Positions 14,293 to 62,443 of a stretch of 64,000 nucleotides of DNA are shown here, in pieces. A program made the translations under genes and the position numbers. Under the pieces are notes generated by a model that saw nothing but the letters and a program-made list of their open reading frames with translations, searched no databases and had not been told where the DNA came from. Every line of letters starts with the position of its first letter. Positions within the stretch are counted from its first letter, which is position 1. Source of the stretch: Minisyncoccia bacterium (GTDB lineage: Bacteria; Patescibacteriota; Minisyncoccia; Phycocordibacterales; UBA9973); assembly GCA_038251535.1 (NCBI GenBank), contig JBBSBF010000002.1, positions 2,220 to 66,219 of the forward strand. The letters run 5' to 3'.

Positions 14293-14293
14293 T

Positions 14294-14737: not shown

Positions 14738-14825
14738 AAAAGTTAATTTTCATTACTTTGCCATATAATGTAGAAATAAGCAAATAAAAAGCCCATCTTC
14801 TTTTTAGAGAAAACGGGCTGTAATT

Positions 14826-44058: not shown

Positions 44059-44631
44059 ATGGACAAAAATAAAGGACAAAAAATAATAGCTGCGATCTAT
44101 CTCGTCACGAGACATTTATCAGACAGTGATCCAATAAAGTTGTCGCTTCGGCAACATGGACTGTCGTTACTACTTCCTGAGAGCGACACGGAAAGACTCG
44201 CCCAACACATGGTAGTACTACTCAAAGCTGCAGCTCTTGCGGGACTCATGAGTGAAAAAAATGTTCTCATTATCACAGAACAAGTCCAGAGCTTTAGCAT
44301 TGCGGGAGGAAATATGGCAGGAGATATATTTGAGACAACGGGAGACGATGCGTTAACAAACAGCTATATAGGACAAAAAATGTCCTATATAAAAAGTGGT
44401 AAAGAGCCTGTCTATAATCAAAAACATAGTGATAATAAGTCTAAAAGGCAGGACCACATACTGACCTTTATTAAAAGACAAAAGTCTGTTGGTATAAAGG
44501 ACATTTCTCAACTCTTTTCTGAGGTGAGTGAAAAAACCATACAACGCGAACTAAGTGCATTGGTTAAAAACGGGATGATCACAAAGCGCGGAAGCAAACG
44601 GTGGAGCCTCTATATGGCAGTTGGTGCGTAA
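44059..44631 (+). CDS. putative transcriptional regulator with a C-terminal DeoR-like winged HTH
   Basis: The C-terminus (ILTFIKRQKSVGIKDISQLFSEVSEKTIQRELSALVKNGMI) matches DeoR-type HTH spacing. The N-terminal domain is unrecognised. A palindrome lies in its promoter region at 43940-44058. Confidence 0.45.
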   Translation: MDKNKGQKIIAAIYLVTRHLSDSDPIKLSLRQHGLSLLLPESDTERLAQHMVVLLKAAALAGLMSEKNVLIITEQVQSFSIAGGNMAGDIFETTGDDALTNSYIGQKMSYIKSGKEPVYNQKHSDNKSKRQDHILTFIKRQKSVGIKDISQLFSEVSEKTIQRELSALVKNGMITKRGSKRWSLYMAVGA

Positions 44632-44907
44632 CGCTACAAACAAGAAATTGTGTAATATAACGAGTCTTTAGTAGTCAACCTTTACAAGTGGCGTACATTT
44701 TTTGCTTGCGTTCGCATCTGTACATATAGATAGTCTATAGCTATCCACATATCTGGTTCAAAATGAACTATTGTGGTACTATAAAAGCTGTCTTTTGGTA
44801 CGATCTTTAGCTGGGTATAGGTTTCGGCTTATCTTCATCTAAAGGCGACAAAAGTCAAAAAATGGAGGTGCTCACTATTCTTCGGAGTATTGAGTATCGC
44901 CACGAAG

Positions 44908-44972
44908 CGGCTCGTTGAAAACTACATAGCCTTAAAAAGCAAGTATAGTATTTCGACGAGCCGTTTTTTTGT
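44908..44972 (+). terminator. terminator-like hairpin, 13-bp stem and a long loop
   Basis: cggctcgttgaaa pairs with tttcgacgagccg, followed by T7. Confidence 0.4.
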
Positions 44973-45163
44973 TTTTATTCACTTGATTTTCAAATGAATA
45001 AAAACGATATCGGCCTTGTCGACACGGCAGATACAGCAGCTCGTTACTGCTTTTCTGCGATTAGCTAAACCGTATGGTGCCTCGAGGTGATAAAGACCTT
45101 GGCTCACCGTACACCCGTCACACTCATATATAAGTGCGACGATTACTAACAATTAATCAAATT

Positions 45164-47215
45164 ATGAATAAAATTACAAAATTTATCGTAGGCGCATCTC
45201 TTGCTGCTTTTGCACTCGTTGCATCAGCATCAACAGCTAGTGCTGCTTACATGCACACTGGTCTCCTTAAACAAGGGATGACTAGTTCACAAGTGATGAG
45301 TCTTCAAACGACTTTGAACGCAAGTGGATTCTTGGTTTCTACTACCGGTGCTGGATCTCCAGGAATGGAATCTAGTTACTTTGGTTCAAAGACCAAGGCT
45401 GCTGTTATGGCATTCCAAACAGCAAAAGGTTTGACCGCTGACGGAATCGTCGGTGCTCAGACTGGAACTGCACTCGCTGCAATGACTGGCGGAAGTATGT
45501 CTTACCCAGCAGGTTGTTCATCAACTTCTGGATACAGCACTGTTAACGGTCAGCCTTGCACGATGACTGCTAATTACCCAGTTGGATGTATGTCAAATTC
45601 TGGATACAGCACTACTACAGGGCAACCTTGTACTGGGGCTAGTCTTCCAGCTGGATGTATGTCAACAGCAGGATTCTCTCCAATTTCTGGCGTTTCTTGT
45701 TCTACTGGAGGTTCGTCTAACGGCGCACTTTCTGGTTCAACTGGAAACATTAGTTCTTACAGTCTCCTTTCTTCAGTTGACAACCAAGTTGGCGAAGGAA
45801 ACACTGACAAGAAAGTTGTTGGCGTTGAAATCAAAGCAGATGCAGGTTCAGACCTCAACATCTCTGCGATGCGCGTAACTTTCAAGAACACTAACTCTCC
45901 AAGTTCATCAAAGCGATTTGATCGATACGCAAAGACAGTGTCAGTATGGGCAGGTAGTACAAAGGTTGGATCAGCAAGTATTTCTGATTTCTCAGAAGAC
46001 TCTGGTCTCTACACAAAGACTATCAACCTCTCAGGTGCAACTGTAAAGGCTGACCAAAAGAGCCAATTTTACGTAACTGTTGATGCAGTAAGTAACATTG
46101 ATTCAGGTGACTTTACAAACACATTCGTTGCAACGATCGACAATGCTCGTTTCAACGATGCGTCTGGAGCTATCTTGACTGAAACTTTCTCAAGTCCGAC
46201 AATTACAAAGACCTTTAGTTTCGTGTCACTTGCAACTGCAAATGACCTCGAACTCAAAGTCAATCTTGCGTCTGACAACATGAAAGCTACAACAGTTAAA
46301 GTTTCTACCACTTCAAACACTAACAACGTGCAACTCTTGAAGTTCACCGTTAAGGCACAAGGTGGAAAGATGCACATTGATCAAATCCCAGTGTATTTCG
46401 CTGCTAGTACCGCACTTAGTGAGGTTACTGGAAACGTAACATTGAAAATCAATGGCGACACCTTTACAGAAACGATTGCTTCAACAACAGCAACTGGTGC
46501 AACGATCACGTTTGACAACCTCAGCTTTGATATCAGTGCAGACGATACCGTTACTGGTACAGTCTACGCAGACATCAACGACATCGAAGTACCTTACTTC
46601 AACCAAGGTGACACGCTCAAAGCGTCTATCACTTCTAGTGAAGTAGCGGTCATCGATGCTGAGGACGCCAATGGCGACAACATCCAGTCTGGAGACCGTT
46701 CAGGTTCTGCAGTTGGTGAAGTTATGACATTCCGTTCAACTGGAGTTAACGCAGTGATGGGCGATGCGTCTATCACTCGTGACACCGACCAAAATGGTAA
46801 TATCGTTCAGGTTCACTACAGTATTCCTGTATCTGTAACTTCATTCGGTAATACTCTTTACCTCGGACAGTCAGCACAGCTTGCTGCTACTGCAACTGGA
46901 TCAAACGCTTTTGCTCTCGTTTACGAGGCTTCAAGCGCTGGTTCTACACCAGTAGTAGGTGGAACTTCTAGTATCACTCTTTCATCTTCTGATTCATCGA
47001 TTGATACAAACGGATTCCGTCTTGACGATGGTCAGACTAAGCACTTCACGATCACTGTAAACCTCATTGATCCTGCAACTGCTAGTACTTCATATCGTGT
47101 TCACCTCGATCAGATCCGAACATTCACTGACGCTCTCCTCACTGCAGGTGCAGCTAACAGTGACTTGCTCCCTATCGAGTCATACCGAACTAACTACCAA
47201 TTGATCAATAGCTAA
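45164..47215 (+). CDS. secreted Ser/Thr-rich surface protein with an N-terminal peptidoglycan-binding domain and three tandem 2-Cys repeats
   Basis: Signal peptide, a PG_binding_1-like motif (MSLQTTLNASGF...AAVMAFQTAKGLTADGIVGAQT), three repeats GC[SM]S.SG[YF]S...G.PC, then beta-rich Thr/Ser domains. The ORF tool starts it at 45134. Confidence 0.6.
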   Translation: MNKITKFIVGASLAAFALVASASTASAAYMHTGLLKQGMTSSQVMSLQTTLNASGFLVSTTGAGSPGMESSYFGSKTKAAVMAFQTAKGLTADGIVGAQTGTALAAMTGGSMSYPAGCSSTSGYSTVNGQPCTMTANYPVGCMSNSGYSTTTGQPCTGASLPAGCMSTAGFSPISGVSCSTGGSSNGALSGSTGNISSYSLLSSVDNQVGEGNTDKKVVGVEIKADAGSDLNISAMRVTFKNTNSPSSSKRFDRYAKTVSVWAGSTKVGSASISDFSEDSGLYTKTINLSGATVKADQKSQFYVTVDAVSNIDSGDFTNTFVATIDNARFNDASGAILTETFSSPTITKTFSFVSLATANDLELKVNLASDNMKATTVKVSTTSNTNNVQLLKFTVKAQGGKMHIDQIPVYFAASTALSEVTGNVTLKINGDTFTETIASTTATGATITFDNLSFDISADDTVTGTVYADINDIEVPYFNQGDTLKASITSSEVAVIDAEDANGDNIQSGDRSGSAVGEVMTFRSTGVNAVMGDASITRDTDQNGNIVQVHYSIPVSVTSFGNTLYLGQSAQLAATATGSNAFALVYEASSAGSTPVVGGTSSITLSSSDSSIDTNGFRLDDGQTKHFTITVNLIDPATASTSYRVHLDQIRTFTDALLTAGAANSDLLPIESYRTNYQLINS

Positions 47216-47251
47216 TCGCTATCTGTCAGTTAGGTATACGTTCCTAATGGC

Positions 47252-47286
47252 AAAAAACCTCCCTATATGGGAGGTTTTTTGTTTTT
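47252..47286 (+). terminator. rho-independent terminator
   Basis: aaaaaacctccctatatgggaggttttttg. Confidence 0.7.
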
Positions 47287-47304
47287 CAGCTATACTTTCC
47301 TTAT

Positions 47305-49341
47305 ATGGAAAAAATACGAGAAGGAGTGCTCACATATGGGTCGATCGCAGTGGTGTTTCTTGTACCGATGATGTACATGAGTACACGGGTATTTCCACAC
47401 ATAACCTCAAAAACGTTCTTTTTCTACGGAATTGTTGAAACGCTTTTTGCGGTATGGATATATAGCGCAATAGTTGACCCGACCTATCGATTGAGTAAAC
47501 GACAGCTATACTTTTTGTTGCCGATACTTTTATTTATCGTATGGTTCACGCTCGCGGGCGTTATGGCAGTCAATCCCCATCTTGCGTTTTGGTCTTCTCT
47601 TTCACGAGGTACGGGGATCATTTCGTTGTACCATTGTGTAGCGTTGTGTATCGTTCTTGTATCGTTGGTCAATAGATATAGTTTTGAAATATATGGAATG
47701 AAGATACTGCGGTGGATCGTATACGCTGGAGGTATTGTTGCGGTGTCCGTGTGGTGTGCAAATGAAGGATTTGATTTGCCGTACCGTTTTTTGCAGCAAT
47801 CACAAGGAGGAGGATTGGTGGGGAACTCATCGCTCGCGGCGACGTATCTGTTGTTAGTGTTATGTATAGGATTGTTTTTGGTGTTTTCCCCGACTGTTTC
47901 CAGGTCAAGAAAAAATACCATCATCGTTATCTCGGCAGTAGTACTTGGTTCACCATTGTTTATGAACATTCATGGATTACTTGTTGGAAAGAGTATCGTT
48001 GGAAGTGCTCATGGGGCAACGATCGGTATCGTTGTAGGGCTTGGCGTAACAGTTCTCGGTGCGAGCATCTTGTCTAAAAACAAGGGAGCAAAGGTAGTTG
48101 GATGGTCGGGTGTAGTTCTGGGCTTGGTAGCGTTTGTGTATGTGTGGAGTCAGCTCTTGGTCGCAGGTTCGACGATTAATCAAAAATTCATTCAGATAGC
48201 TTCGGGGACACGATTTATATTTTGGAATGTTGCGAGTGAATCAATGCATGCGCATCCATGGCTTGGGTATGGTCCCGAAAACTATATGATCGCGCTTCAG
48301 GATCACTTTGATCCTAAAATGCTTCTCTCTGATTATGGATTTGAGGCATGGGATGATAGAGCGCATAACGTGTATTACGATATGGGAGTTTCGGGTGGGT
48401 ATCCTGCCATCATGCTGTATGCGTTTGTGCTCATATCTTTCGGGTACGTCGTATACGAACTCTTTTCAAAAAAGGTGCTTTCTCGATGGCAGGCGTCAAC
48501 ACTGTGGGGACTTTTGATCGGCTATATCTTTCAAAATCTTTTTGTGTTTGACTCACTGGTTTCGTATGTGATATTTTTTGCGATTGTAGGAGTTTTTGTT
48601 GGTGCGGGGAGGGGGATGTATGCGAAAGAGCGAGGAGGGACAAAACAGATTTCTCAGAGTAGTGGTAATCTTATCGCAGGTGTTCTCATCATCATGACTG
48701 CAATTATCTGGTATAACACGACATGGTTGCCATCTCGGAAAGCAATCGCGTTTGGACGGATCCTTGATTTACCACTCAATACTCGTGCAGAAAGTTATCC
48801 AAAGCTCTCTCTAGGTTCATCGATTGGGAATGATTGGGATGTTGGAGGATTTGGACATAATCTGTTTAAACTTTACGCAGCAAAACCTGAAGAGGTAAAA
48901 AGCAATCCAAAGATTATGCGCTACGCACCAACTGATGTATCAACGTTTTTGGAATACCTTGAAAAAGTAGATACTCAAAATGAACATGACTATCGACTCA
49001 AGTTGAGTATTATCCATCTCTACAGTACCTATATTTTCCTCACCGATAAGCCTGTTGATCCAGTGTATGCGCAGCACATTCTTGATCTTGCGCAAGAAGC
49101 AGAAAAACTTTCGCCAAATGATCCACAAACATATTGGAGTGTTACGCCGATACTTACGTGGCTCGGAAGTATCGATGCGGCACAGGCAGCATATGAAAAA
49201 GCAATCAGTATCGATCCGAGTATTCCAATATCGCACACGCTCCTCATTCAGTTTGCAGAAGGTTTGGGAAACAAAAAACTAGCTCAACAGGCCTTGGCGC
49301 AGGCCGAAAAAGATATTCCAGGATTCACCTATAACCAATAA
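47305..49341 (+). CDS. Wzy_C-family membrane protein (O-antigen ligase / PglL-like O-oligosaccharyltransferase-like) with C-terminal TPR repeats
   Basis: About 12 TM helices and Wzy_C motifs in a periplasmic loop (HAHPWLGYGPENY ... RAHNVYYDMGVSGG). The C-terminus has TPR-like repeats (AYEKAISIDP...). Confidence 0.7.
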   Translation: MEKIREGVLTYGSIAVVFLVPMMYMSTRVFPHITSKTFFFYGIVETLFAVWIYSAIVDPTYRLSKRQLYFLLPILLFIVWFTLAGVMAVNPHLAFWSSLSRGTGIISLYHCVALCIVLVSLVNRYSFEIYGMKILRWIVYAGGIVAVSVWCANEGFDLPYRFLQQSQGGGLVGNSSLAATYLLLVLCIGLFLVFSPTVSRSRKNTIIVISAVVLGSPLFMNIHGLLVGKSIVGSAHGATIGIVVGLGVTVLGASILSKNKGAKVVGWSGVVLGLVAFVYVWSQLLVAGSTINQKFIQIASGTRFIFWNVASESMHAHPWLGYGPENYMIALQDHFDPKMLLSDYGFEAWDDRAHNVYYDMGVSGGYPAIMLYAFVLISFGYVVYELFSKKVLSRWQASTLWGLLIGYIFQNLFVFDSLVSYVIFFAIVGVFVGAGRGMYAKERGGTKQISQSSGNLIAGVLIIMTAIIWYNTTWLPSRKAIAFGRILDLPLNTRAESYPKLSLGSSIGNDWDVGGFGHNLFKLYAAKPEEVKSNPKIMRYAPTDVSTFLEYLEKVDTQNEHDYRLKLSIIHLYSTYIFLTDKPVDPVYAQHILDLAQEAEKLSPNDPQTYWSVTPILTWLGSIDAAQAAYEKAISIDPSIPISHTLLIQFAEGLGNKKLAQQALAQAEKDIPGFTYNQ

Positions 49342-50197
49342 GTCCTTTCCATACGCCCCGATACCACGGTATGAGTGCCTGCGAACTCTTTTTTTGAAGT
49401 ACTCGTACAAATGCATATACCGTGATGAGTAGTGTGATGGCATAGACACGTTGTATGAAGGAAAAATTTTTTTGATAAAAAATAGTCATACTTTTCGATA
49501 ACTGTTCGAGTGCAAAGGTATTTGCTCGTTTTGATCCACCTGTTTCAATCTGGTGCCAAGCCTTCGCTTGGGGGACATAGTAGATATGGTGAGCGGTATG
49601 TGTACGCCAACAAAAATCCAAATCTTCAACATAAAAATAATACTGTTCATCAAAGTATCCAATCTGTTCGAAAAGTTTCGATCGTATGAGCATGACACAT
49701 CCGGTCACAAAGTCGACCTGTTGTGGCTCGTCGTTTATTTCGTTACGAATCACATTTTTCTGTGGCATGTGAATGTTCATTCGAGCATATGAGAAAAAAC
49801 CTCCAGCCTGCCAAATCTTGTTTCGTTGTGTTGCGTAGTATATCGTTGGTCCGACGATCATAGTGAGAGGGTCCCTATCACAGGGGGCAATGAGTTGTGA
49901 AAGTGTGGTCGGAGAAACTGTCGCGTCGTCATTGATGAGTAAGACGTAGTCTGAGTTTTCGCCGAGTGCTTTTCGTATACCTTGATTTACTGCATGGGCA
50001 AATCCCATGTTTGTTTTGTTTTGAATGTATGGTAATGATGGAAATGCATGTTGCACTGGGGCTAATGCTGCTTCGGTGCCATTGTTTACGATGATGATAC
50101 GAACGATCACACCTTGGCTTTTTAATAAAGAATGTATAGCCGCAATTGTTTCTTGTGGTTTTTGATAATGAATAATGATTGCGGTAACGGTAGGCAT
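49325..50197 (-). CDS. family 2 glycosyltransferase
   Basis: GT-A fold with a DxD motif (LLINDDA) in the N-terminal half. Confidence 0.8.
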   Translation of the reverse strand: MPTVTAIIIHYQKPQETIAAIHSLLKSQGVIVRIIIVNNGTEAALAPVQHAFPSLPYIQNKTNMGFAHAVNQGIRKALGENSDYVLLINDDATVSPTTLSQLIAPCDRDPLTMIVGPTIYYATQRNKIWQAGGFFSYARMNIHMPQKNVIRNEINDEPQQVDFVTGCVMLIRSKLFEQIGYFDEQYYFYVEDLDFCWRTHTAHHIYYVPQAKAWHQIETGGSKRANTFALEQLSKSMTIFYQKNFSFIQRVYAITLLITVYAFVRVLQKKSSQALIPWYRGVWKGLIGYR

Positions 50198-50198
50198 A

Positions 50199-51359
50199 TT
50201 ATTTGAGGATTGATGCTGCTATTGCCTTACGATTTAAGACACTTCTCCAGTACGTAGCAATCGCGTGCGGGTCTCGCTTGTTTTCCTCCCATGCAGAAAT
50301 CTCATATAAAAGCGCTTCTTTTTGGTCACTGTACGTATTTTTTTTCGCAACGGTACCACTGTTGTTGTGTGTTAAAAAATGCGCGTATTCTAGTGGACTT
50401 GCAACAAGAGTCATGCCACAACACACTGCTTCTGATGCTGACAAGTTGAAGCCTTCCCATCGAGATGGAATAAAAAGAATTTGGCTGTTGAGTAAATGTT
50501 TTTGTACAAGCAATGCATGCGAGAGTGGCTTGAAGATAGCGACATTTTTTAGCTGTGAAAAATACGAACTATGGCTACCAATAACAGAAAATGAGTATTG
50601 AGGAAAAAGGCGTGGTATCGTTGTTAGTATTTTTTTAAGAACCTCTCTGTTTTTTGACCGATCATTCCATCTGCCGATTGAGATGATGCGTTGTTCTTTG
50701 TGGGTTGGTAGTGGTGCATCAATAATATCTTGACTGACAGGGTTTGGAATCACTCTAATTTTTTCCGATAGTCCGGGCATGTTCCAGTAGGATAATATTT
50801 TTGTGAGATTTTCTTTTGCGAGAGGGGATTCGATGATGGTAGTGTCAGCTAAGGCTATTTGCTGTAGTCGGTTGCGATGGAAAAATCCGATTGGAAATAT
50901 CCACTGCACTGACCGAATACTCCAATAGATAAAGTCTCGCACACTACTCCAGTATCCCGCACCTCGCAGATATGAAGGACGCAATGGATATCCAAGTCTT
51001 CCGTCACTATCGAGTTTTATAGCAGTTTTAATTTGGTTTAATACAAGAGCCTTGATGATCGGTGTAAGTGTGTACGAAAGCCAGGTATAACAAAGGATGA
51101 AATCAATCGTCTGGTTTGTTGTTTGTTCTTTCCAAAAAGATGCTCGTTTTGCATCTGCTTTTGATATAAGCATAGTGGGAATGTTTGCATCTGGATGAAC
51201 TGATGAAGAAAATGTATACACAGTGACACGATGGCCTAAATCTATAAATCCAAGGAGTATTTGGCCCACATCTTTTGTAAGCATGTACGAATCAAATGTT
51301 GGGATAAATAACACGATATTTTTAGGCATTTTTTCCATGATATGATGTAATGATAACAC
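50199..51359 (-). CDS. family 4 (GT-B) glycosyltransferase
   Basis: E-x7-E-like motif (WEGFNLSASEAVCCGMTLVAS). Confidence 0.7.
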   Translation of the reverse strand: MLSLHHIMEKMPKNIVLFIPTFDSYMLTKDVGQILLGFIDLGHRVTVYTFSSSVHPDANIPTMLISKADAKRASFWKEQTTNQTIDFILCYTWLSYTLTPIIKALVLNQIKTAIKLDSDGRLGYPLRPSYLRGAGYWSSVRDFIYWSIRSVQWIFPIGFFHRNRLQQIALADTTIIESPLAKENLTKILSYWNMPGLSEKIRVIPNPVSQDIIDAPLPTHKEQRIISIGRWNDRSKNREVLKKILTTIPRLFPQYSFSVIGSHSSYFSQLKNVAIFKPLSHALLVQKHLLNSQILFIPSRWEGFNLSASEAVCCGMTLVASPLEYAHFLTHNNSGTVAKKNTYSDQKEALLYEISAWEENKRDPHAIATYWRSVLNRKAIAASILK

Positions 51360-51369
51360 ACGTAACTGT

Positions 51370-52596
51370 ATGCATGATCGCCCAAAAGTATTGGTTTTAC
51401 TGTCGAGAATACCGTATCCCCATACTGATGGTACTCGGTTTAAGGTTTACAACAATATCCTGGGAGGGCTTTCGGAGCTCTACGACGTAGAGTTGTTGAT
51501 CGTGACGAACGATCGCCTTACAAAGGAGGCAGAAGAAGCATTATCTAAGGTCTCGAATAAATTTCACTACTTTTATTTACCGCTTACGGTACGGATTAAA
51601 AATATTTTTCGCGCCATCTTTTCCTCGCTACCATTTCAAGCGCGACTGTATCGTTCGACCAAGGCGCTTCATTTTTTTGTGTCTCATCTCAAGCACTATG
51701 ATGCTGTGTATGTGCACACATTGCGTATGGCGATCTATGCTGACGCAAGTAAAGATACAGACAAGATACTTATTGATTTTAATGACGCGATTTCATTGAA
51801 CTATATCGAAGCGAAAAAAAAGGCGTCACTGTTGTGGCGGGTAATATACTCAATTGAACTACAAAGGGTACGTTATTATGAGAGGGCACTTTTGCTCCGC
51901 TACTGTTATTTTTGTTGTGTATCACCGTATGATCGATCGTATCTTTTGGAAAATATTTCAGGAGATTTGCAAAAAAATATAGTATTTAACATAGTTCCAC
52001 ACGGCATTTCTGATGATCTCATTGGTCTCAAGAAAGAGCACAATGAAACTATTACGCGATTAATATTTTTGGGAAATTTGGAGTATCCTCCCAACACTGA
52101 TGCGATGCGATATTTTTTCAACACCGTATGGCGTGGCATACGTACTCGCTACCCACATATCACACTCACCGTGATCGGTAAGGGGCGAGAAATATTTAAC
52201 CATGCGATTGACGGAGTTACTTTTTTGGGATTTGTTGAAGATCACGGGAGTGAGTTGGCGGCACACGATGTATTTATTTCCCCACTGCGTTTTGGGGCAG
52301 GGATTCCGAGTAAAATATTGGAGGCGATGGGTGTTGGATTACCTATTCTCGGCACAACGTTTTCGTTTCGCGGTATTTCTGGCGTAGACTCGTCTTTGTG
52401 TGGAGCGTTAGTTGAGCGAGTGGGTACTGTTAATGAGTGGGTTTCTGCGATCGAAATACTTGGACCAAAGGTAACGAGAGCCCGTATTGGGTTGCACAAT
52501 CGAGAGGTGATTGATCGACTGTACTCCAACTATCAAAGCAAAAAAGTATACCAACAGTTAGTTGGGGAAATTATTTCAAAAAATAGCGCCGTTTAA
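51370..52596 (+). CDS. family 4 (GT-B) glycosyltransferase
   Basis: C-terminal GT-B motif (RFGAGIPSKILEAMGVGLPILGT). Confidence 0.7.
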   Translation: MHDRPKVLVLLSRIPYPHTDGTRFKVYNNILGGLSELYDVELLIVTNDRLTKEAEEALSKVSNKFHYFYLPLTVRIKNIFRAIFSSLPFQARLYRSTKALHFFVSHLKHYDAVYVHTLRMAIYADASKDTDKILIDFNDAISLNYIEAKKKASLLWRVIYSIELQRVRYYERALLLRYCYFCCVSPYDRSYLLENISGDLQKNIVFNIVPHGISDDLIGLKKEHNETITRLIFLGNLEYPPNTDAMRYFFNTVWRGIRTRYPHITLTVIGKGREIFNHAIDGVTFLGFVEDHGSELAAHDVFISPLRFGAGIPSKILEAMGVGLPILGTTFSFRGISGVDSSLCGALVERVGTVNEWVSAIEILGPKVTRARIGLHNREVIDRLYSNYQSKKVYQQLVGEIISKNSAV

Positions 52597-54022
52597 AAAA
52601 CATCATTCCTTTGTAAAAAAATGGTTCTTTGTATGAAATCAACACGCTAATATAGACCACCATCGATAGTACGACAGGGATCCATAGATGCACTCGGCGA
52701 GGAGTGACGAAAACTATGACGATCATACACAGCGCTGCAATGACGTACTTTTTCAACTGTTCCATGATTGGTCTTGTTTCGATATCGGCGACGAACCATC
52801 CAGTGATAGTAAGGGTCAAAAGTGATATCGTTGTTGCGATGGCGGCACCGATAGTATGAAAATACTTTGTGAGAAAATAAATGAGTACGATATTTAGTAC
52901 CACGGTGCATAGATGTGAGTAAATATAGTTCCACTGTTTTTGTTTGGCGATAACGCTATTGTTGATGAGGTGGAGAGGAAAGACGGCGATGATACTCGTC
53001 AGCAATATACTAAATATTGGGACTGATGCTTTGAAGCTCTCTCCAAATGCAATGTGGACAATAGATGGAGCAATGGCGATACCTATGATGACGATCGGAA
53101 AAGAGAAACCGATAAGCGCAGAAAGTATGATGTTGAATTGAGTTGATTGTGACGAAGGATCTTTGATCATCGACGGGAGGAGCGCGAGACTTATTAAATA
53201 TGGGACCATGTACATGATTTGGATCAGTCGCTGACCTGCTGCATAGATACCTAGACTATATGAGCCCTGGAGCCACCCAACCACGACGGTGTCTATGTTA
53301 AAGATGACTGTAGTAGAGAAAAGGAGTAAACCAAAAGGTATCATTTCTTTCCAGATGTTTTTTAGCGCACGAGTTGGTCTTTGTTTGAGATCTGTCTTCA
53401 CATATCGACCAAAAAAAATCATAACGAGCGCAACTGCTGCGGTACTCCCGATAGCATATGCCGCAACCAATGATGCTGCTGAATGAAATCGATACAATAC
53501 AAATACTCCGATTGATGCCGTGGCGATGTTTGCAGCAATCTTTATTGCCGCTTCTGCTTCCATCTTTTCATGTGCACGGATAATGCCAAACAAAAAATCT
53601 TTGAATGAATCAACTACAGTAAAGATGGCAATCCAGAAGATCAAGTGTGACGTGACGCTGATTTTTGTACTAATGCAAAAAAACACCACAATACAAACAT
53701 AGGTACACAACAGTAAAAGGTACTTGAGAAAGATACTGCTATAGATATAATCGTTACGTCTGTTGTGTGGAGCAAATGAAAATTCTCTCGCAGCAAGTGT
53801 GTGCAATCCCATATCTGAAAAGAATGAAAAGACTAGTGCTATCGAGAGTCCATATGAAAATATACCCCACTCTTGTACTCCGAGCATTCGAGCACCAAAA
53901 ATGATGAGCGCGATTTTGATCACTCGACTTACTCCTTCACCGATAAAAAGCCAAAGAGTGTTTTTTGCAACTGTTTGTGTTGCCGTTGTGTTTTTAAATA
54001 AAAATTTTTTTAAACTAGACAT
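52571..54022 (-). CDS. wzx: polysaccharide biosynthesis flippase (Wzx, MOP/PST family)
   Basis: About 483 aa with 12-14 TM helices and a PST-family N-terminus (NTLWLFIGEGVSRVIKIALIIFGARMLG). Confidence 0.75.
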   Translation of the reverse strand: MSSLKKFLFKNTTATQTVAKNTLWLFIGEGVSRVIKIALIIFGARMLGVQEWGIFSYGLSIALVFSFFSDMGLHTLAAREFSFAPHNRRNDYIYSSIFLKYLLLLCTYVCIVVFFCISTKISVTSHLIFWIAIFTVVDSFKDFLFGIIRAHEKMEAEAAIKIAANIATASIGVFVLYRFHSAASLVAAYAIGSTAAVALVMIFFGRYVKTDLKQRPTRALKNIWKEMIPFGLLLFSTTVIFNIDTVVVGWLQGSYSLGIYAAGQRLIQIMYMVPYLISLALLPSMIKDPSSQSTQFNIILSALIGFSFPIVIIGIAIAPSIVHIAFGESFKASVPIFSILLTSIIAVFPLHLINNSVIAKQKQWNYIYSHLCTVVLNIVLIYFLTKYFHTIGAAIATTISLLTLTITGWFVADIETRPIMEQLKKYVIAALCMIVIVFVTPRRVHLWIPVVLSMVVYISVLISYKEPFFYKGMMFFKRRYFLK

Positions 54023-54024
54023 GA

Positions 54025-55299
54025 TTAGTGGGTAAAGATAATCTGTATCGTTTTTAGGCTGATACCAATATCGAGCAATATATTTTTGTTTCGGATGTAA
54101 TAAAGATCATACTCAAATTTTTCTTTTGAATCCGCAATCGATCGTGCATAGCGGTATTTGATCTGTGCCCAGCCAGTGAATCCGGGTCTAATAGTGTGTC
54201 TGAGGTAATAGTAGGGAATATGTTTCTCAAGCTCTGCGACAAATTCCGGACGTTCGGCACGGGGGCCAATAAGGGCGAGGTCTCCTCGGATAATATTGTA
54301 CATTTGTGGGATCTCATCGATATGGGTCTTTCGCAAGATCTTGCCGACTCGGGTAATGCGTGGGTCAGTCTCCTCTGCCCACTGTGCCCCTAATTTTTCA
54401 GCACGCTTCTTCATTGATCGAAGTTTGTAGATAATAAAGGATGCATTGTTTTTCCCTACACGCGTTTGCCCATAAAATATGGGAGAACCATCTTCAAGAT
54501 ATATAGCAATTGCGGCGAGTAGTATGATCGGAGCGGTTACTATCAATACAATACTCGCAATCAGTATCTCTAAAGCTCGGGTGAAAAATCTGTTTCCGCG
54601 GAAATGATTGCTACTCAACACGTCAAGTGCTATTTGATCGCTCATGAGTTCAAGAGGAAATGTTCCAAGGAGGGAAGCATACGCCTCAAGGAGTGAAAGG
54701 CTTGGTGCATTTATTTTTTGTGAGAGGAGGTGGAGATCGTACGGGTCCGTTTGGTGAGCAATGATGAGGTCAACAGGGTTCTCGATCGATCGTGGGGTGG
54801 TATCCCAGTGCCCCACGACGATGCCGATATGGGAATGCTTTGACAAAGCATCTGAAAGCAGGTGTATGGTCGGAGTCGACCCAATGAGCGCAATGCGCCG
54901 TTTAAATCTAAACGCATACAAGTGATAAAATGCCCTTCTCCAAAGTAAGAGTAGTATAAAACTAGTACCGATCAAGATCGCGAGGTTGGTTTTAGGGCTG
55001 ATGCCAGTGTTTGGAGTTAGATAAAATAACACAACGGCGAGCACGGTATTTACCCCCATCGCTGCAACGAGTTGCCCAATGTTGCGAGCGTTTGGATTGA
55101 TGCGAGATATATCGTACAGATCAAATATAAAAAAAACGATGAGCCATATCAGGAACATGACACCAAAGACCATCACTTCATACCAAATATGAGTGCCTTG
55201 AGCACCGACGTCAAATCTGACGATGGCCATGATCGCAAGCGATAGGACGAGCGCGAGGACGTCTCCGAGTAATAGCAGGATCTTTTGGTGGGAAAACAT
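54025..55299 (-). CDS. polyprenyl-phosphate sugar-phosphate transferase (WbaP/WcaJ/PglC-type initiating transferase)
   Basis: C-terminal bacterial sugar-transferase domain (IGPRAERPEF ... YYLRHTIRPGFTGWAQI). The likely start is MFSHQK at 55299; the ORF tool extends it to 55521 through a hydrophobic low-complexity stretch. Confidence 0.78.
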   Translation of the reverse strand: MFSHQKILLLLGDVLALVLSLAIMAIVRFDVGAQGTHIWYEVMVFGVMFLIWLIVFFIFDLYDISRINPNARNIGQLVAAMGVNTVLAVVLFYLTPNTGISPKTNLAILIGTSFILLLLWRRAFYHLYAFRFKRRIALIGSTPTIHLLSDALSKHSHIGIVVGHWDTTPRSIENPVDLIIAHQTDPYDLHLLSQKINAPSLSLLEAYASLLGTFPLELMSDQIALDVLSSNHFRGNRFFTRALEILIASIVLIVTAPIILLAAIAIYLEDGSPIFYGQTRVGKNNASFIIYKLRSMKKRAEKLGAQWAEETDPRITRVGKILRKTHIDEIPQMYNIIRGDLALIGPRAERPEFVAELEKHIPYYYLRHTIRPGFTGWAQIKYRYARSIADSKEKFEYDLYYIRNKNILLDIGISLKTIQIIFTH

Positions 55300-55407
55300 G
55301 CAAAAATTATATAATAATTTGTGATTTTGTACAGTATGTCCAAAAGACATTCTTATGTACACTACAGGTATTACCATAAGTGGATAATCATAGTAAAAAG
55401 AGTACGT

Positions 55408-56079
55408 ATGAACAACGAACAAAACAACCAACAAAATCAGAATAACCAGCGTAACAATAATCAAAATCAGCACAATCAGCACAATCAACAACCAAAACCA
55501 GAGCAGCCGCAACAGCGCCACCCTGAAATGTCTCCAGAAGCTCCAGAGTCACAGGAACGAAACAAAAAAGCGATGAAAGGTATTGGGATCGCGCTCATCA
55601 TCATTGTCGTCGTCGTATTGGCCGCAAGCGGTAAATGGTTTAAATCGAGCGACAAAACAACGACTGACCAATCGCTTACTACCGACACACTCCCAGAAGG
55701 TTGTAGTGAAGGATCACTCTTTAGTGCGACAACAGGTAAACCATGTCCAAGTACTCCAACAACCATCGGAGGAGATTCCATGAAGGCTGACAAACCTGAT
55801 ACGACTGAAACATCCGGCTACGATGAAGCGATCAAGGCATACGCCGGCAAAATGATTGCATTTGATGGAGATTGCAAACCAGCACCTGCTTCTCCAGAGT
55901 TTGCTATCGGCACGCGCATATTGGTTGCCAACAATTCTGAAAAGACACTCATACTCTCTGCGAGTGGACGGACTGAAACACTCGATCGATATCATTACTT
56001 TACCGTCACACTCCCTATCGGTGGGATGACAGATGTATCTTGCAATGGTGCAGTTGCGGCGACTGTAATGGTCAAATAG
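55408..56079 (+). CDS. hypothetical membrane protein with an N/Q-rich cytoplasmic tail and an extracellular domain carrying one 2-Cys motif
   Basis: Poly-N/Q low-complexity tail, one TM helix, and GCSEGSLFSATTGKPC, which resembles the repeats in the 45164 protein. The likely start is MNNEQ; the ORF tool gives 55321. Confidence 0.4.
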   Translation: MNNEQNNQQNQNNQRNNNQNQHNQHNQQPKPEQPQQRHPEMSPEAPESQERNKKAMKGIGIALIIIVVVVLAASGKWFKSSDKTTTDQSLTTDTLPEGCSEGSLFSATTGKPCPSTPTTIGGDSMKADKPDTTETSGYDEAIKAYAGKMIAFDGDCKPAPASPEFAIGTRILVANNSEKTLILSASGRTETLDRYHYFTVTLPIGGMTDVSCNGAVAATVMVK

Positions 56080-56099
56080 AATATCACCGTACGTTGATA

Positions 56100-56132
56100 G
56101 AAAAACACCCTCTGTTACAGAGGGTGTTTTTC
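56100..56132 (+). terminator. rho-independent terminator
   Basis: 10-bp stem (acaccctctg / cagagggtgt), 3-nt loop and a T-run. Confidence 0.7.
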
Positions 56133-56150
56133 TTGGTGTATACTCCTGAC

Positions 56151-56417
56151 ATGGAATCTACCCCTAAAACAACAATATTGTGGTTTCGCGCCAAGCGGTA
56201 TGGGTACGGCTGGTACCCAAGTTCGTGGCAAGGATGGGCAGTGCTCGTCATGTATTTGTTTGCTGTTACGTGGGATTTCCTCGCATTAGATGGGCAATCG
56301 CACTCTGTATCTGATACACTCATCGGATTTTTCCCACACTTTTATATCCTCACAGTCTTTCTTATTATCATTTGTGAAGCAAAAGGAGAGAAGGCGAAAT
56401 GGAGGTGGGGGAAATAA
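56151..56417 (+). CDS. small hypothetical membrane protein
   Basis: About 88 aa with two TM helices, starting after the terminator. The ORF tool starts it at 56040, inside the upstream gene. Confidence 0.3.
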   Translation: MESTPKTTILWFRAKRYGYGWYPSSWQGWAVLVMYLFAVTWDFLALDGQSHSVSDTLIGFFPHFYILTVFLIIICEAKGEKAKWRWGK

Positions 56418-56437
56418 AAAAACATAGGAGTTTGAAC

Positions 56438-58183: not shown

Positions 58184-58396
58184 ATGATAAAGAGGGTACT
58201 CTGTTTTTCAATACTGACGGTATTTTGTGTCTTTGGGTTTTTCAATCATGCCCATGCAGCACTGACGGATAACTTGAGTGCGTATTGGAAACTCGATGAA
58301 GCAAGTGGCACGAGAGTAGATAGCGCTGGAAGCAACGATCTCACCTCAAACAATAGTGTCGGGCAAGCAGTCGGCAAACTTGGGAATGCCTCATAG
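58184..58396 (+). CDS. N-terminal fragment (signal peptide plus start of a LamG domain) of the giant surface protein, ended by an in-frame TAG
   Basis: Signal peptide, then DNLSAYWKLDEASG...GKLGNAS, which continues in the same frame after the TAG at 58394-58396 as FTATSSQYLSIPDNAAL... Confidence 0.55.
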   Translation: MIKRVLCFSILTVFCVFGFFNHAHAALTDNLSAYWKLDEASGTRVDSAGSNDLTSNNSVGQAVGKLGNAS

Positions 58397-58420
58397 TTTA
58401 CAGCTACTAGTAGTCAGTAT

Positions 58421-61400
58421 TTGAGCATTCCTGATAATGCAGCACTAAGTACAGGGGATATAGATTTTACTGTTGCAGGGTGGGTGTACTTAAGCTCTAA
58501 AACTACCTCACAAGGTTTAATAGGTAAATGGGATAGTGGAACTACTCGTGAATATCTTATTTATTATAATACCAGCGGTGATAGTTTTAATTTTGGTGTA
58601 AGCAGTAATGGAAGTAATTTAACAACCATTACAGCTAGCAGTTTTGGTTCTCCTGCTCTTAACACATGGTATTATGTCGTTGGATGGCATGATTCTGTTA
58701 ACAACACACTCAATATTCAAGTAAATAATGGGACAACAAACTCAGTTAGTTATTCTTCTGGAGTTATTGATAGCACGTCTTCATTTTATATTGGGCAGTA
58801 CCAAGGTGGACAATTTTTTACTGGTAATATAGATAGTGTCGGCCTTTGGAAGAGAGTGTTAACTAGTCCTGAAAAAGCAACACTTTATAATTCAGGAAAT
58901 GGACTTGAATATCCTTTTGTGGTCACTGTTCCCGATGCTCCAACTTCACTTTCAGCAAATACGGGAAATGCACAAGCTTATTTGTACTGGGACCCACCTT
59001 CTAATACTGGTGGTTCATCAATCACAGATTATATTGTCGAATATAAACTTTCAAGTGAGCCAACGACTTGGTCAACGTTCTCTGATGGGACGAGTACAGT
59101 AACGTATACCACAGTTACGGGGCTGACAAATAACCTTTCTTATGATTTTCGAGTCAGCGCAGTAAATGCAATCGGTACTGGTACAGCATCAGGTGTCGCG
59201 ACAACAACACCCCTTCTTCTGTCGACTTTGTTAAGTGATAGCTTCACCGGTACAACTATCGATACAGCAAAATGGACAGAAATAGATAGCATTGCAGGTG
59301 GTACAGGTGGAAACGTTACTCAAAATGGAACATTAAGTGTTGCAAATAGTTTCGTTGCATCGACATGGGGAGCAACAGCGCTTTATTCTACGAACACCTT
59401 TTCTTCAAACGGTCTTGAAATATCAGCAATTATGACTCCGGGAGGTGATCAGTTTATTGAGTATGGTGACATCAATTTTCAATCTGCGGGGACTAGAGCA
59501 TACATACTTTTTTTGACAGGTGGTGGTGTTCAAGGAATTGCTAAAAAGGATGGAGCGTATACATCGAATGTAAGTTGCGGAACAGCAACAAGTGGGGCTA
59601 CGTACAAGATGAAAATTATTACAACTGGATTTCAAATATACAAGAATGGTGTATTACAGTGCGTTGCAAATCCCGGAGCTTCTAATTTAGTGGATAATAA
59701 ACCTGTTTTTCTTGAATCCGCTACAACTGCGAGTACTTTTGATGATGTATTAGTTTACGGTGATAGCGCGACAAGTACAGTACCAGATGCTCCAACTGCG
59801 GTCTCAGCAACAGCGGGGGATGCACAGGCAATTGTCTCTTTCACCGCACCAGCTTCAAATGGAGGATCTGCTATTACAAGCTACACAGTTACCTCCTCTC
59901 CTGGTGGCATTACGGGTACAGGTTCTACTTCTCCAATTACCGTTACTGGTCTGACAAACAATACCGCTTACACATTTATTGTTACCGCAACAAACTCTAT
60001 TGGGACTAGTGCCTCTTCATCTTCTTCAAATAGTGTCACTCCTACTGCTTCTTCATTACAATCAATATCGATTACAAATGCAAATCTTGTCTGGAGTCCT
60101 TACAATTGGCATTTCAACGGATCAACATCTGCAACTACTAATCCTGGCGGAGCATATGTAAAGGTTGCATTTAGTGGCACAACGCTTGCGATTGGCGTCG
60201 ATACATCTTCGCTAGGCTCTGTACCTGCTTCATCGATACACATTCATACATTTATTGATGGTTCAACAAGTCTTATTGATAAAACACTTGCAAATGCAGT
60301 GAGTAACACGGTCACCATAAGCAGTTCTCTTTCTTCTGGCAATCATTATGCAATTATATATCTTGGTATTACAGACAATAATGTCGCCTATGATAGATGG
60401 ACTGTCCCCAATAATGCATTAAAAATAACGAACATAAAAATTGATGCTGCAGAGAGTATCTTGTCATTGAGCAGTACACCATTGGCACAAAAATCACAAA
60501 AAATAATTATATTTGGTGATTCAATTACTGAAGGATCTATTAACATTGTCACCGGCTCCGAATATGGGTATGCAGCAATTATGGGTAAGACGTACAATGC
60601 TGAATACGGACAAATTGGGTATGGAGGACAAGGATGGAATAGAGGAGGAAGAGGAAGTGTGCCTGCATTTTATAACGCAACAACACCAGGGCTTGCCTCG
60701 TGGCGTTCGTACGACAGCACCGCAACTAGACTCGTAGATGTAAACGACCTTTCCGCGGGTTTTATTGGAGGAAATCCGGATGCAGTATTTGTCAATATGG
60801 GCACTAACGATGCTATTAATAGTGTTGGTACAACACTGCAAGAAAATGCTATAGCTGCATGGCTCGCAGATATCAGGTTGACTGTGGGTAATACTGCGAA
60901 AATCTTTATTATCTCTCCATTTGATTTTGGCAATACAGGAAGTAGTACTTATGCACCGTATAAGACATCTTTATTGGCTGGCATTAATGATTATAAATTG
61001 GCAGACCCTGCTGATAATAAAGTATATATACTTGATTTAGGTATGCCTGGTTATAATACTGTCGTTGCTAATTCAAGTGATAGTCTTCATCCAAACAATA
61101 CTGGGTCTGCATTGCTTGGTAATCAATTAGCGGCACTAGCTGTTTCCACGTCAACTTTTACGACATCTCCAAGCACCACAGTGCAAGACAGTACTGCTGT
61201 CACTATCACCCTTACCGGTACTGGTACAGCGTGGACAACTGGAACGCCAGGGACCCCTACCTTCTTACTCTCTGGAGGAACCGGTGCTAGTATTACTGCT
61301 CAAACAATCACTTCAAGTACCAGTGCCACACTCACCATCAATGCTGGCAGTGCAGTAACTACTCTTACCATCGCTGACCCAACAAATAATTCAACAACTA

Positions 61401-62443
61401 CTGTTTCTGTTACTTCATCTGATATTATCCCACCCGTTATTTCACTTACCACACCTTCTGTGGGTACTGTTTCCGGACCTTCAGTTACTGTCTCGGCATC
61501 AGCTTCTGATAATGCAGTTGTCATTGGTGTTCAGTTTAAACTCGATGGAAGTAATCTTCAAGCTGAAGACATTGTATCTCCTTATGTGATTAGTTGGGAC
61601 ACTACTACCGTTGCAGATGGAATTCACACGCTGACTGCAGTTGCTAGAGATGCAGCAGGGAATAGTACAACGACTTCATCGACCTCTGTAACTGTCGACA
61701 ACACCCCTCCCTCCCTCTCCCTCGGTTCTCCTTCAGGCTCTCTTGCTTCCTCAACCACCTCAACTACACTCTCCATCACCACCGACGAATCTTCCACCTG
61801 CAAATACGACACCACCCCAAGCACTCTCTACGCATCCATGTCTCACACCTTTGATACCACGGGAGGTACTTCTCACACTTCTTCTCTCACCAGTCTCACC
61901 TCTGGAACGTCATACTCATACTACATCCGTTGCATCGACGCTTCTTCCAATGCAAACACGTCTGACTACACCATCTCCTTCTCAGTTGATGCTCTCTCAA
62001 CCATCCCTCATATCAACATCACCTCTATCGGATACAATCCTTCATTCCTTCCAGGTCTTCTCTTTCCAATCACTAACAGCACTAACAGCACTAACAGCAC
62101 TGACACCACTGCGTGTAGAAGAGGAGACTCCTTCTCCATGACTACCGGTGCTCGATGTACACCTACTACTCCTTACACTCCACCATCATCATTCATCTTC
62201 ACCCGTTCACTCTCTTGGCATGACACAGGGGACGACGTCAGATCCCTCCAACACTATCTCAACACCCACAACACACCTGTTGCACCCTCTGGTGTTGGCT
62301 CTCTCAATCATGAGACAACATACTTTGGGTTAGCGACGAGAGCTGCAGTGATGGCATTCCAGAAGGCGAACGGACTCGTCGATGATGGGGTGGTGGGGCC
62401 GATCACGAGGAAGGTGATTGAGTCCGTCGAAAGGCAGAATTGA
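58421..62443 (+). CDS. giant secreted multidomain surface protein: LamG - FN3 - FN3 - SGNH/GDSL hydrolase - Ig-like Thr/Ser-rich region - C-terminal peptidoglycan-binding domain
   Basis: Two FN3 units (PDAPTSLSA...YLYWDPP, PDAPTAVSA...IVSFTAP). SGNH block I (IIFGDSITEG) and block V (DSLHPNNTG). A C-terminal PG_binding_1 motif (AAVMAFQKANGLVDDGVVGPIT). The ORF begins with TTG and is in frame with the 58184 fragment. Confidence 0.7.
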   Translation: MSIPDNAALSTGDIDFTVAGWVYLSSKTTSQGLIGKWDSGTTREYLIYYNTSGDSFNFGVSSNGSNLTTITASSFGSPALNTWYYVVGWHDSVNNTLNIQVNNGTTNSVSYSSGVIDSTSSFYIGQYQGGQFFTGNIDSVGLWKRVLTSPEKATLYNSGNGLEYPFVVTVPDAPTSLSANTGNAQAYLYWDPPSNTGGSSITDYIVEYKLSSEPTTWSTFSDGTSTVTYTTVTGLTNNLSYDFRVSAVNAIGTGTASGVATTTPLLLSTLLSDSFTGTTIDTAKWTEIDSIAGGTGGNVTQNGTLSVANSFVASTWGATALYSTNTFSSNGLEISAIMTPGGDQFIEYGDINFQSAGTRAYILFLTGGGVQGIAKKDGAYTSNVSCGTATSGATYKMKIITTGFQIYKNGVLQCVANPGASNLVDNKPVFLESATTASTFDDVLVYGDSATSTVPDAPTAVSATAGDAQAIVSFTAPASNGGSAITSYTVTSSPGGITGTGSTSPITVTGLTNNTAYTFIVTATNSIGTSASSSSSNSVTPTASSLQSISITNANLVWSPYNWHFNGSTSATTNPGGAYVKVAFSGTTLAIGVDTSSLGSVPASSIHIHTFIDGSTSLIDKTLANAVSNTVTISSSLSSGNHYAIIYLGITDNNVAYDRWTVPNNALKITNIKIDAAESILSLSSTPLAQKSQKIIIFGDSITEGSINIVTGSEYGYAAIMGKTYNAEYGQIGYGGQGWNRGGRGSVPAFYNATTPGLASWRSYDSTATRLVDVNDLSAGFIGGNPDAVFVNMGTNDAINSVGTTLQENAIAAWLADIRLTVGNTAKIFIISPFDFGNTGSSTYAPYKTSLLAGINDYKLADPADNKVYILDLGMPGYNTVVANSSDSLHPNNTGSALLGNQLAALAVSTSTFTTSPSTTVQDSTAVTITLTGTGTAWTTGTPGTPTFLLSGGTGASITAQTITSSTSATLTINAGSAVTTLTIADPTNNSTTTVSVTSSDIIPPVISLTTPSVGTVSGPSVTVSASASDNAVVIGVQFKLDGSNLQAEDIVSPYVISWDTTTVADGIHTLTAVARDAAGNSTTTSSTSVTVDNTPPSLSLGSPSGSLASSTTSTTLSITTDESSTCKYDTTPSTLYASMSHTFDTTGGTSHTSSLTSLTSGTSYSYYIRCIDASSNANTSDYTISFSVDALSTIPHINITSIGYNPSFLPGLLFPITNSTNSTNSTDTTACRRGDSFSMTTGARCTPTTPYTPPSSFIFTRSLSWHDTGDDVRSLQHYLNTHNTPVAPSGVGSLNHETTYFGLATRAAVMAFQKANGLVDDGVVGPITRKVIESVERQN
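62072..62107 (+). repeat. 9-nt microsatellite (actaacagc) x3 plus a degenerate copy, encoding TNSTNSTNSTD
   Basis: Read directly from the sequence, inside the giant surface protein gene. Confidence 0.7.

Follow-up and report, generated by a model that had tools for sequence, protein, structure and literature searches.

A Wzy_C-TPR enzyme encoded beside a wall-anchored surface protein in a Minisyncoccia bacterium: a candidate surface O-glycosylation locus

We analyzed a 64,000-nucleotide stretch of DNA (hereafter the window; contig JBBSBF010000002.1 of assembly GCA_038251535.1) from a Minisyncoccia bacterium of the Patescibacteriota, which contains a glycan locus centered on a membrane enzyme of the Wzy_C family with a C-terminal tetratricopeptide repeat (TPR) domain, encoded next to a secreted, peptidoglycan (PG)-binding surface protein. 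The reading we prefer, with a probability of roughly 45% and by analogy with the surface layer (S-layer) glycosylation (slg) systems, is that the locus directs en bloc O-glycosylation of this wall-anchored protein by a WaaL-fold ligase with an outward-facing TPR docking domain. On the cytoplasmic side, a WbaP-class transferase would load polyprenyl phosphate with hexose-1-phosphate, two family 4 glycosyltransferases (GT4) and one of family 2 (GT2) would extend this to a short oligosaccharide, about four sugars long, and Wzx would move it to the outer face. There, the outward loop of the Wzy_C enzyme (R303, H354) would transfer the glycan from its carrier to an exported acceptor docked by the TPR domain. 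The main acceptor would be the PG-anchored protein encoded immediately upstream, modified in its serine/threonine (S/T)-rich stalk of Cys-bracketed loops, and other proteins carrying the Cys loop would be further targets.

Nine genes within 44059 to 56079 received clear family assignments in Pfam and NCBIfam searches of the window proteins (Table 1), and every component named in a preliminary description of this DNA was present, with coordinates exact or within a few codons. Taken as a set, the genes support a complete polyprenyl-phosphate-linked glycan pathway with the Wzy_C-family enzyme as its end point. In NCBIfam, the initiating transferase just reached the cutoff of TIGR03025 EPS_sugtrans (295.7 versus 295.55 bits), a rhamnosyltransferase subfamily was the top match of the GT2, under its cutoff, and the plus-strand GT4 was TIGR03087-like (122 bits, also under cutoff). 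Neither nucleotide-sugar genes nor genes of teichoic acid type (glycerol-/ribitol-phosphate, choline) were found in the 64-kb window.

An AlphaFold2 model of the Wzy_C enzyme, built on 24 family members, had a predicted local distance difference test score (pLDDT) of 90.8 and a predicted template modeling score (pTM) of 0.90. Apart from TPR proteins, its only significant match in the PDB was the ligase WaaL (7tpg_B; Foldseek E 2e-5, template modeling score 0.63 on the target, 14% identity), and Pfam Wzy_C was matched by 23 of the 24 family members, with a best E of 4e-24. Five residues, R303, E347, D351, H354, and N355, were invariant in the family alignment. Two of them fall opposite residues of Escherichia coli K-12 WaaL (R303 opposite R288, H354 opposite H338); with R215, these WaaL residues form a trio reported to be conserved in PglL and important for WaaL (PMC3643930). 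The underlying hhalign comparison of the family profile with E. coli WaaL had a probability of 28% and serves to set the motif register, not to prove homology; a PDB sequence search with the N-terminal 482 residues returned nothing at E ≤ 10. The loop motifs that the preliminary description had written as HxxxWLGxGxxNY and RAHNxYYD stand literally in the protein, as MHAHPWLGYGPENY and DDRAHNVYYD.

Thirteen transmembrane (TM) helices were predicted, of which 12 form a WaaL-type core and the 13th (residues 452-470) is absent from WaaL. By hydropathy and the positive-inside rule, the short K/R-rich loops at residues 195-205, 257-268, 388-396, and 433-451 were predicted to be cytoplasmic, and the catalytic loop (residues 288-360) and residues 471-678 are therefore predicted to lie outside. 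Profile searching and topology prediction, which had been proposed as a check on the enzyme, thus gave a Wzy_C score above the cutoff and an outward catalytic loop. PglL_A (PF15864) and Wzy_C_2, the signatures used to tell PglL/PglS from WaaL (PMC3643930, PMC12645811), had no match in the window enzyme at E ≤ 1, and neither ranked among the 25 families with the most matches across the 24 members. We therefore class the enzyme as a Wzy_C-family protein with the WaaL fold and, as these signatures are missing, ruled out a Neisseria-type PglL; the likeness to Neisseria-type O-glycosylation drawn in the preliminary description did not hold for the enzyme. A classical lipopolysaccharide (LPS) O-antigen ligase was ruled out as well, by the Patescibacteria lineage and by the context, as the 64-kb window holds no LPS core or lipid A genes. 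We know of no bacterium of the candidate phyla radiation (CPR) that makes a lipid A-core acceptor.

In the window enzyme, the C-terminal repeat domain stayed under the Pfam thresholds (TPR_11, 22.1 versus 26.8 bits), yet the TPR assignment was backed by two other lines of evidence. The family profile matched consensus TPR proteins and the TPR domain of OGT with E values of 1e-56 to 1e-19, its PDB matches as a full profile being to TPR proteins only, and the AlphaFold2 model showed paired helices over residues 491-670. These results support a real, extracytoplasmic TPR domain beside the catalytic loop.

A pattern scan with one genome for each species gave at least 560 loci that encode Wzy_C-TPR relatives; 80 of these loci were fetched and are cited here by L number. 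By their labels, all came from Patescibacteria or unclassified metagenome-assembled genomes, save L021 (Candidatus Humimicrobiaceae) and L079 (labelled Gammaproteobacteria), and the homologues with names were Candidatus Nomurabacteria, Parcubacteria, or Patescibacteria, which bears out the CPR assignment. The 16 closest loci (27 to 43% identity) shared the gene order RecA, small TM protein, FtsK, regulator, PG-binding protein, and Wzy_C-TPR wherever the contig reaches. In 15 of these 16, the PG-binding gene was upstream on the same strand within three gene positions, and in most it was directly upstream; the contig of the remaining locus (L008) ends just upstream of the enzyme, and the count rests on the other 15. 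A homologue of the DeoR-type regulator, whose presence upstream in the window agreed with the preliminary description, preceded the PG-binding gene in 13 related loci. Downstream of the enzyme the content varied, with GT11 fucosyltransferase-like proteins, several GT2s, epimerases/dehydratases, a methyltransferase, or glycine-rich proteins. In L005, L006, and L007, the far end again held the initiating transferase, and the right-hand end of L005 was that of the window (Wzx, initiating transferase, Q/N-rich protein, L10, and L7/L12). The locus is thus a variable glycosyltransferase island between a conserved surface protein/ligase pair and a conserved initiating transferase, the same variable-center pattern as in O-antigen and slg loci.

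The same set of loci was used to weigh whether the enzyme is a ligase or a polymerase. As a Wzy polymerase, it would build a capsule, exopolysaccharide, or secondary wall polymer, with the TPR domain as a chain-length or export scaffold and attachment encoded elsewhere in the genome. We regard this as unlikely, while noting that Wzx, a WbaP-class initiator, glycosyltransferases, and one Wzy_C protein make up a textbook Wzy-dependent composition, that the initiator and one GT4 matched exopolysaccharide-type models best in NCBIfam, that Wzy_C forms with and without the TPR domain share the same motifs, and that Pfam Wzy_C is also matched by many Wzy polymerases (PMC4594306). Among the 80 loci, 29 had an initiating-transferase homologue within 10 kb of the Wzy_C-TPR gene, and in 17 a member of the phosphoglycosyltransferase cluster was its immediate upstream neighbor. 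Beside distant homologues of the enzyme (23 to 30% identity), exporters of other kinds were seen in some loci: an ABC half-transporter (ABC_membrane plus ABC_tran, MsbA/PglK type) directly upstream in L024, L026, and L052, and Wzm (ABC2_membrane), Wzt, and a TylF-type methyltransferase nearby in L062 and L066. In ABC-transporter-dependent pathways, the glycan is finished in the cytoplasm, so that a ligase is needed and a Wzy polymerase is not used; this company therefore favors a ligase over a polymerase.

A second Wzy_C-family gene was present in 15 of the 80 loci. Two tandem long Wzy_C-TPR forms followed the surface protein gene in L003, L008, L009, L013, L014, and L015, and an additional short, TPR-less Wzy_C (433 to 449 amino acids) lay inside the glycosyltransferase block at L015:15739-17082, L016:14853-16151, and L083:15096-15938. 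The short form is the better polymerase candidate, as it is sited where a polymerase is expected. The long form has as its conserved partner a surface protein and not the glycosyltransferases, which also argues against polymerization. Furthermore, no separate chain-length regulator of the kind that the preliminary description had envisaged as partner of a polymerase was found: Wzz/polysaccharide co-polymerase (PCP), tyrosine kinase, LCP, and second Wzy genes were all missing from the 64-kb window and from the recurrent neighbors of related loci. We conclude that the TPR form is probably the transferring enzyme, a ligase, and not a polymerase. Since the window locus has no second Wzy_C, a single short oligosaccharide would be transferred.

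As to the acceptor, we place a protein at a little below even odds, and what favors it is that the surface protein gene is kept upstream of the enzyme while the downstream glycosyltransferases differ between loci. A reverse look-up from surface-protein homologues on long contigs found a Wzy_C protein of 666 to 674 amino acids as the next gene in two of three cases. In the distant loci, PG_binding_1 proteins were encoded within two genes of the enzyme at 6 of 215 positions, compared to 0 of 554 positions farther away (Fisher p = 4.5e-4), and long S/T/P-rich linkers were present in five of the seven PG_binding_1 neighbors that were inspected. This positional enrichment, together with the linkers, indicates that the enzyme is truly linked to secreted proteins that are S/T-rich and anchored to the wall. 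The co-occurrence envisaged in the preliminary description was found beside close orthologues, where the surface protein is conserved, and was not universal farther out.

A rather unlikely alternative is that the Wzy_C-TPR enzyme is a ligase onto a membrane glycolipid, yielding a lipoglycan, or onto PG or its precursor, the PG-binding neighbors being merely other wall genes. WaaL, which the enzyme matches in fold and catalytic residues, naturally transfers to a glycolipid, and so does TacL, a WaaL-like enzyme of pneumococci, which gives lipoteichoic acid. MurB recurred near distant members (19 loci, 12 of them within four genes), conserved neighbors that bind the wall would fit a general wall context, and most distant loci had no candidate protein acceptor nearby. 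What speaks against a non-protein acceptor is that the upstream surface protein gene stays beside the enzyme while everything downstream changes, and that the window has none of the teichoic-type genes. As a separate observation, secreted proteins of ~500 to 590 amino acids with a HEFxH zincin-like motif follow distant Wzy_C-TPR genes at L035:2634-4367, L042:11925-13703, and L027:4533-5981; one of them has a C-terminal PG_binding_1 domain, and Pfam assigned the main domain to no family.

The surface protein encoded upstream of the enzyme starts at an ATG (45164) that agrees with the N-termini of its homologues, of which there were 328, those with names being Patescibacteria. A signal peptide and a PG_binding_1 domain are followed by a low-confidence stalk of ~80 residues and ~490 residues of beta-sandwich. 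Its AlphaFold2 model (pLDDT 82.7) was beta-rich over residues 196-683, forming an Ig-like array whose beta-sandwiches resembled integrin leg domains and Gram-positive MSCRAMM-type adhesins in Foldseek. It is a wall-anchored surface protein and a candidate acceptor, and S-layer formation by it is only putative. The protein encoded from 55408 is a second candidate acceptor; it is anchored in the membrane in type II orientation by a single TM helix, with a cytoplasmic N-terminus rich in Q/N and a stalk rich in S/T, and its Cys-loop-bearing orthologue adjoins the initiating transferase in L005.

The third, giant protein is not part of the locus proper and is separated from it by the L10 and L7/L12 genes. 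Its start at 58184, as given in the preliminary description, was borne out by a good signal peptide; an in-frame TAG (58394-58396) follows after 70 codons, and the mechanical open reading frame (ORF) resumes at a TTG (58421), without signal peptide. The TAG could reflect a pseudogene, a sequencing error, or readthrough, and it makes the giant protein a doubtful acceptor in this strain. The combined Ser and Thr content was 0.27 for the upstream surface protein, 0.29 for the giant protein, and 0.17 overall for the 55408 protein, with a local peak of 0.45, compared to 0.10 to 0.15 for housekeeping proteins of the window. Of the three S/T-rich secreted flankers named in the preliminary description, two do carry PG_binding_1 and have elevated Ser and Thr, while the giant one is interrupted by a stop and the 55408 protein reaches only 0.17 overall; the conserved link to the upstream PG-binding protein stood, and the flankers are acceptor candidates only.

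All three secreted flanking proteins carry a Cys-bracketed loop with the consensus P-x-G-C-[TS]-S-x-x-G-[YFW]-S-x-T-T-G-x-x-C, which had no other true match in the window. In the upstream surface protein, its tandem copies form the stalk between the PG_binding_1 and Ig-like domains, and the last copy was nearly invariant across the protein family. In the 1109 ORFs examined from the 80 loci, the motif was limited to orthologues of these three proteins, plus one spurious regex match. No Pfam model covers the loop. A word-indexed homologue search with the loop segment returned nothing, unlike an exhaustive HMMER search with the stalk segment against 1.84 billion representatives, which matched 308 protein clusters at E ≤ 1e-3 and 59 at E ≤ 1e-10. 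These clusters were of varied lengths and architectures, with tandem arrays of up to more than 10 loops; several of the inspected proteins also had PG_binding_1, others had Kre9-like Ig, PKD, or CARDB domains, and the members with names were Parcubacteria or Nomurabacteria. That the loop is the glycan attachment site is doubtful. A broader and no more likely proposal is that Parcubacteria have a lineage-wide general protein O-glycosylation system, in which the TPR domain would recognize the folded, disulfide-bracketed loop as a structural sequon in hundreds of wall-anchored proteins. If true, a folded-loop sequon would be of a kind undescribed for bacterial en bloc O-glycosylation, and the coat of sugars shown by these epibionts to hosts and phages would come from the strain-variable glycan island.

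Several observations weigh against glycosylation of the surface protein by the Wzy_C-TPR enzyme. Residue 236 of the window enzyme is a His, whereas Arg is found there in at least 90% of the family and at the matching residue of E. coli WaaL (R215). Long, TPR-bearing Wzy_C forms cannot be told from short ones by their catalytic motifs; of two short forms, one retains the His of the motif and the other has Gly in its place. Polysaccharide export scaffolds, too, can carry TPR domains. A PG-binding neighbor was present in only ~10 to 17% of distant loci, and the adjacency among close orthologues may in part reflect inheritance rather than function, because the RecA-FtsK-regulator-surface protein-Wzy_C block is syntenic as a whole. 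In the third case of the reverse look-up, the surface-protein homologue (L082:9256-13178) was followed by Fic, a PIF1 helicase, and a Y1 transposase and not by Wzy_C, which suggests that a mobile element took the place of the glycan island or inserted there. As for the Cys loop, all three other loop proteins that were checked on longer contigs were not near a Wzy_C gene, and the loop may be a structural or wall-binding module and not a sequon, because its G-[YFW]-S-x-T-T-G-x-x-C part is strongly conserved and often paired with PG_binding_1.

Compared by description, the slg-type O-oligosaccharyltransferases (O-OTases) appear to be the closest described system, with a strong working resemblance. 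The predicted O-OTases WsaB of Geobacillus stearothermophilus and WsfB of Paenibacillus alvei contain Wzy_C; a C-terminal TPR motif is found in WsfB and PglL, whereas WsaB has none but comes after WsaA, a small TPR protein. Initiation is by the WbaP-like enzymes WsaP and WsfP, and the Geobacillus slg cluster encodes Wzm/Wzt, a terminating methyltransferase, and WsaB (all reviewed in PMC2943079). The slg clusters and the present locus would thus have in common a monoderm-type envelope, a WbaP-like initiator, several glycosyltransferases, an exporter, and a strain-variable center. WsfB has the same Wzy_C plus C-terminal TPR architecture, likened here by description and not by sequence, and the TPR part that WsaB has as a neighboring protein is, on the same descriptive footing, fused to the enzyme in our locus. 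The differences are a Wzx in place of the Wzm/Wzt exporter of Geobacillus, a neighboring protein of PG_binding_1/Ig-like type that is not a known S-layer protein, the lack of nucleotide-sugar genes in the locus, and the Patescibacteria lineage.

Other known enzymes resemble the window enzyme in part. WaaL (Cupriavidus metallidurans, 7TPG; E. coli K-12) shares the fold, the Pfam Wzy_C match, and the Arg and His of the outward loop, but it has neither a 13th TM helix nor an extracytoplasmic TPR domain of ~200 residues, and its first conserved Arg is a His here. Among Gram-negative O-OTases, the dedicated enzymes TfpO, TfpM, and PglS are encoded beside their substrates (PMC12645811; also PMC3643930). 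PglL, PglS, TfpO/PilO, and TfpM are Wzy_C/WaaL-like and transfer glycans en bloc from undecaprenyl pyrophosphate to Ser/Thr of exported proteins; the window enzyme differs in having no PglL_A/Wzy_C_2, non-pilin candidate substrates, a full TPR domain, and a monoderm-type lineage. Wzy polymerases of O-antigen and capsule share the multi-TM form, the Wzx-containing loci, and Pfam Wzy_C matches, whereas our enzyme has no regulator partner that could be found, homologues beside ABC exporters, a TPR domain outside, and a surface protein next to it. Finally, TfpW of Pseudomonas aeruginosa is a GT-C pilin arabinosyltransferase with a periplasmic C-terminal TPR domain, encoded beside pilA (bioRxiv 10.1101/2020.04.19.049825). 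It likewise combines an outside TPR domain on a membrane transferase with a gene beside that of the protein substrate, but it is an ArnT/Emb-like GT-C enzyme with a DDX motif and not Wzy_C, and the substrate gene is flanked on the opposite side.

Our literature search found no link between Patescibacteria and O-antigen-ligase-type enzymes or protein glycosylation. The earlier suggestion that a Wzy_C-TPR enzyme acting as a protein O-OTase would be undescribed therefore stands for this lineage in the literature searched, and does not extend to the architecture. Novelty is limited to the lineage because the Wzy_C plus TPR arrangement of WsfB, and of WsaB with WsaA, and its proposed use, are already in the review cited above (PMC2943079).

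The positions of all features are collected in Table 1. Some gene starts need comment. The mechanical ORF of the initiating transferase (498 amino acids) over-extends, and its start is likely 55350 or 55299. The mechanical starts of the divergent GT4 genes are just 10 bp apart (51359-51370), and the minus-strand GT4 probably begins a few codons downstream, at a Met within MEKMPK. GC content dips slightly in the middle of the island (0.396), and a promoter/terminator scan of 43800-56600 was uninformative, with counts not above the shuffled expectation.

Table 1. Positions of the genes, domains, and loops of the glycan locus and of the giant surface protein
Feature	Position	Strand	Details
HTH_DeoR regulator	44059..44631	+	190 aa; HTH at residues 130-176; Pfam E 6e-7
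PG_binding_1 surface protein	45164..47215	+	683 aa; secreted; Pfam E 4e-14
Three tandem 15-residue Cys loops of the surface protein	45515..45700	+	CSSTSGYSTVNGQPC, CMSNSGYSTTTGQPC, CMSTAGFSPISGVSC (regex scan of translations)
Wzy_C membrane enzyme with TPR	47305..49341	+	678 aa; Pfam Wzy_C 38.0 bits, cutoff 31.7
Predicted extracytoplasmic catalytic loop of the Wzy_C enzyme	48166..48384	+	Residues 288-360; 73 residues, acidic
C-terminal TPR-like helical repeat domain of the Wzy_C enzyme	48715..49338	+	Residues 471-678; predicted outside the membrane
GT2	49325..50197	-	290 aa; Pfam Glycos_transf_2 E 2e-19
GT4	50199..51359	-	386 aa as ORF; Pfam Glycos_transf_1 E 8e-11
GT4	51370..52596	+	408 aa; Pfam Glyco_trans_1_4 E 8e-20
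Wzx-type (MOP) flippase	52571..54022	-	483 aa; Pfam Polysacc_synt E 6e-26
Large initiating phosphoglycosyltransferase, WbaP/WcaJ class	54025..55350	-	Pfam Bac_transf E 4e-60
Q/N-rich, single-TM, S/T-rich protein	55408..56079	+	223 aa; one Cys loop
Cys loop of the Q/N-rich protein	55702..55746	+	CSEGSLFSATTGKPC
Giant surface protein	58184..62443	+	LamG, fn3, GDSL esterase, Big, C-terminal PG_binding_1 (Pfam); one Cys loop
Cys loop of the giant protein	62114..62158	+	Just before its PG_binding_1 domain

The rest of the window is housekeeping in nature, with tRNA synthetases, RecA, FtsK, ribosomal proteins, and a thymidylate/dihydrofolate reductase block. An isoleucyl-tRNA-synthetase-like protein of 1191 amino acids (23920-27495, plus strand) has a His_Phos_1 domain (residues 540-711, E 4e-32) inserted between its class I catalytic halves. 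The low-GC block at 11440-15758 (0.34 to 0.38, compared to ~0.43 elsewhere) encodes two tandem dihydrofolate reductases, a cytidylyltransferase-like protein, dCMP deaminase, and thymidylate synthase, and may be an acquired nucleotide-metabolism island. In one of the related loci, the RecA gene (L084:557-2758) encodes 733 amino acids with intein-splicing and LAGLIDADG domains, i.e., an intein.

Attachment to other cells is the way of life of Patescibacteria/CPR bacteria, whose surfaces have, to our knowledge, hardly been studied. If the proposed glycosylation of the surface protein is correct, a large clade of Patescibacteria would decorate a conserved wall-anchored protein with a strain-variable glycan, and this glycan would be the first to suspect of a part in host recognition, phage evasion, and antigenic variation. 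The analysis provides an enzyme family (at least 560 loci), one conserved candidate substrate, and one repeat motif absent from Pfam as objects for testing. For glycoengineering, the system would offer a compact O-OTase that brings its own domain for docking the acceptor, along with a small, defined loop as its target. If the acceptor is instead a lipid or the wall, the locus would still be a first sketch of how Patescibacteria make a lipoglycan or wall glycan.

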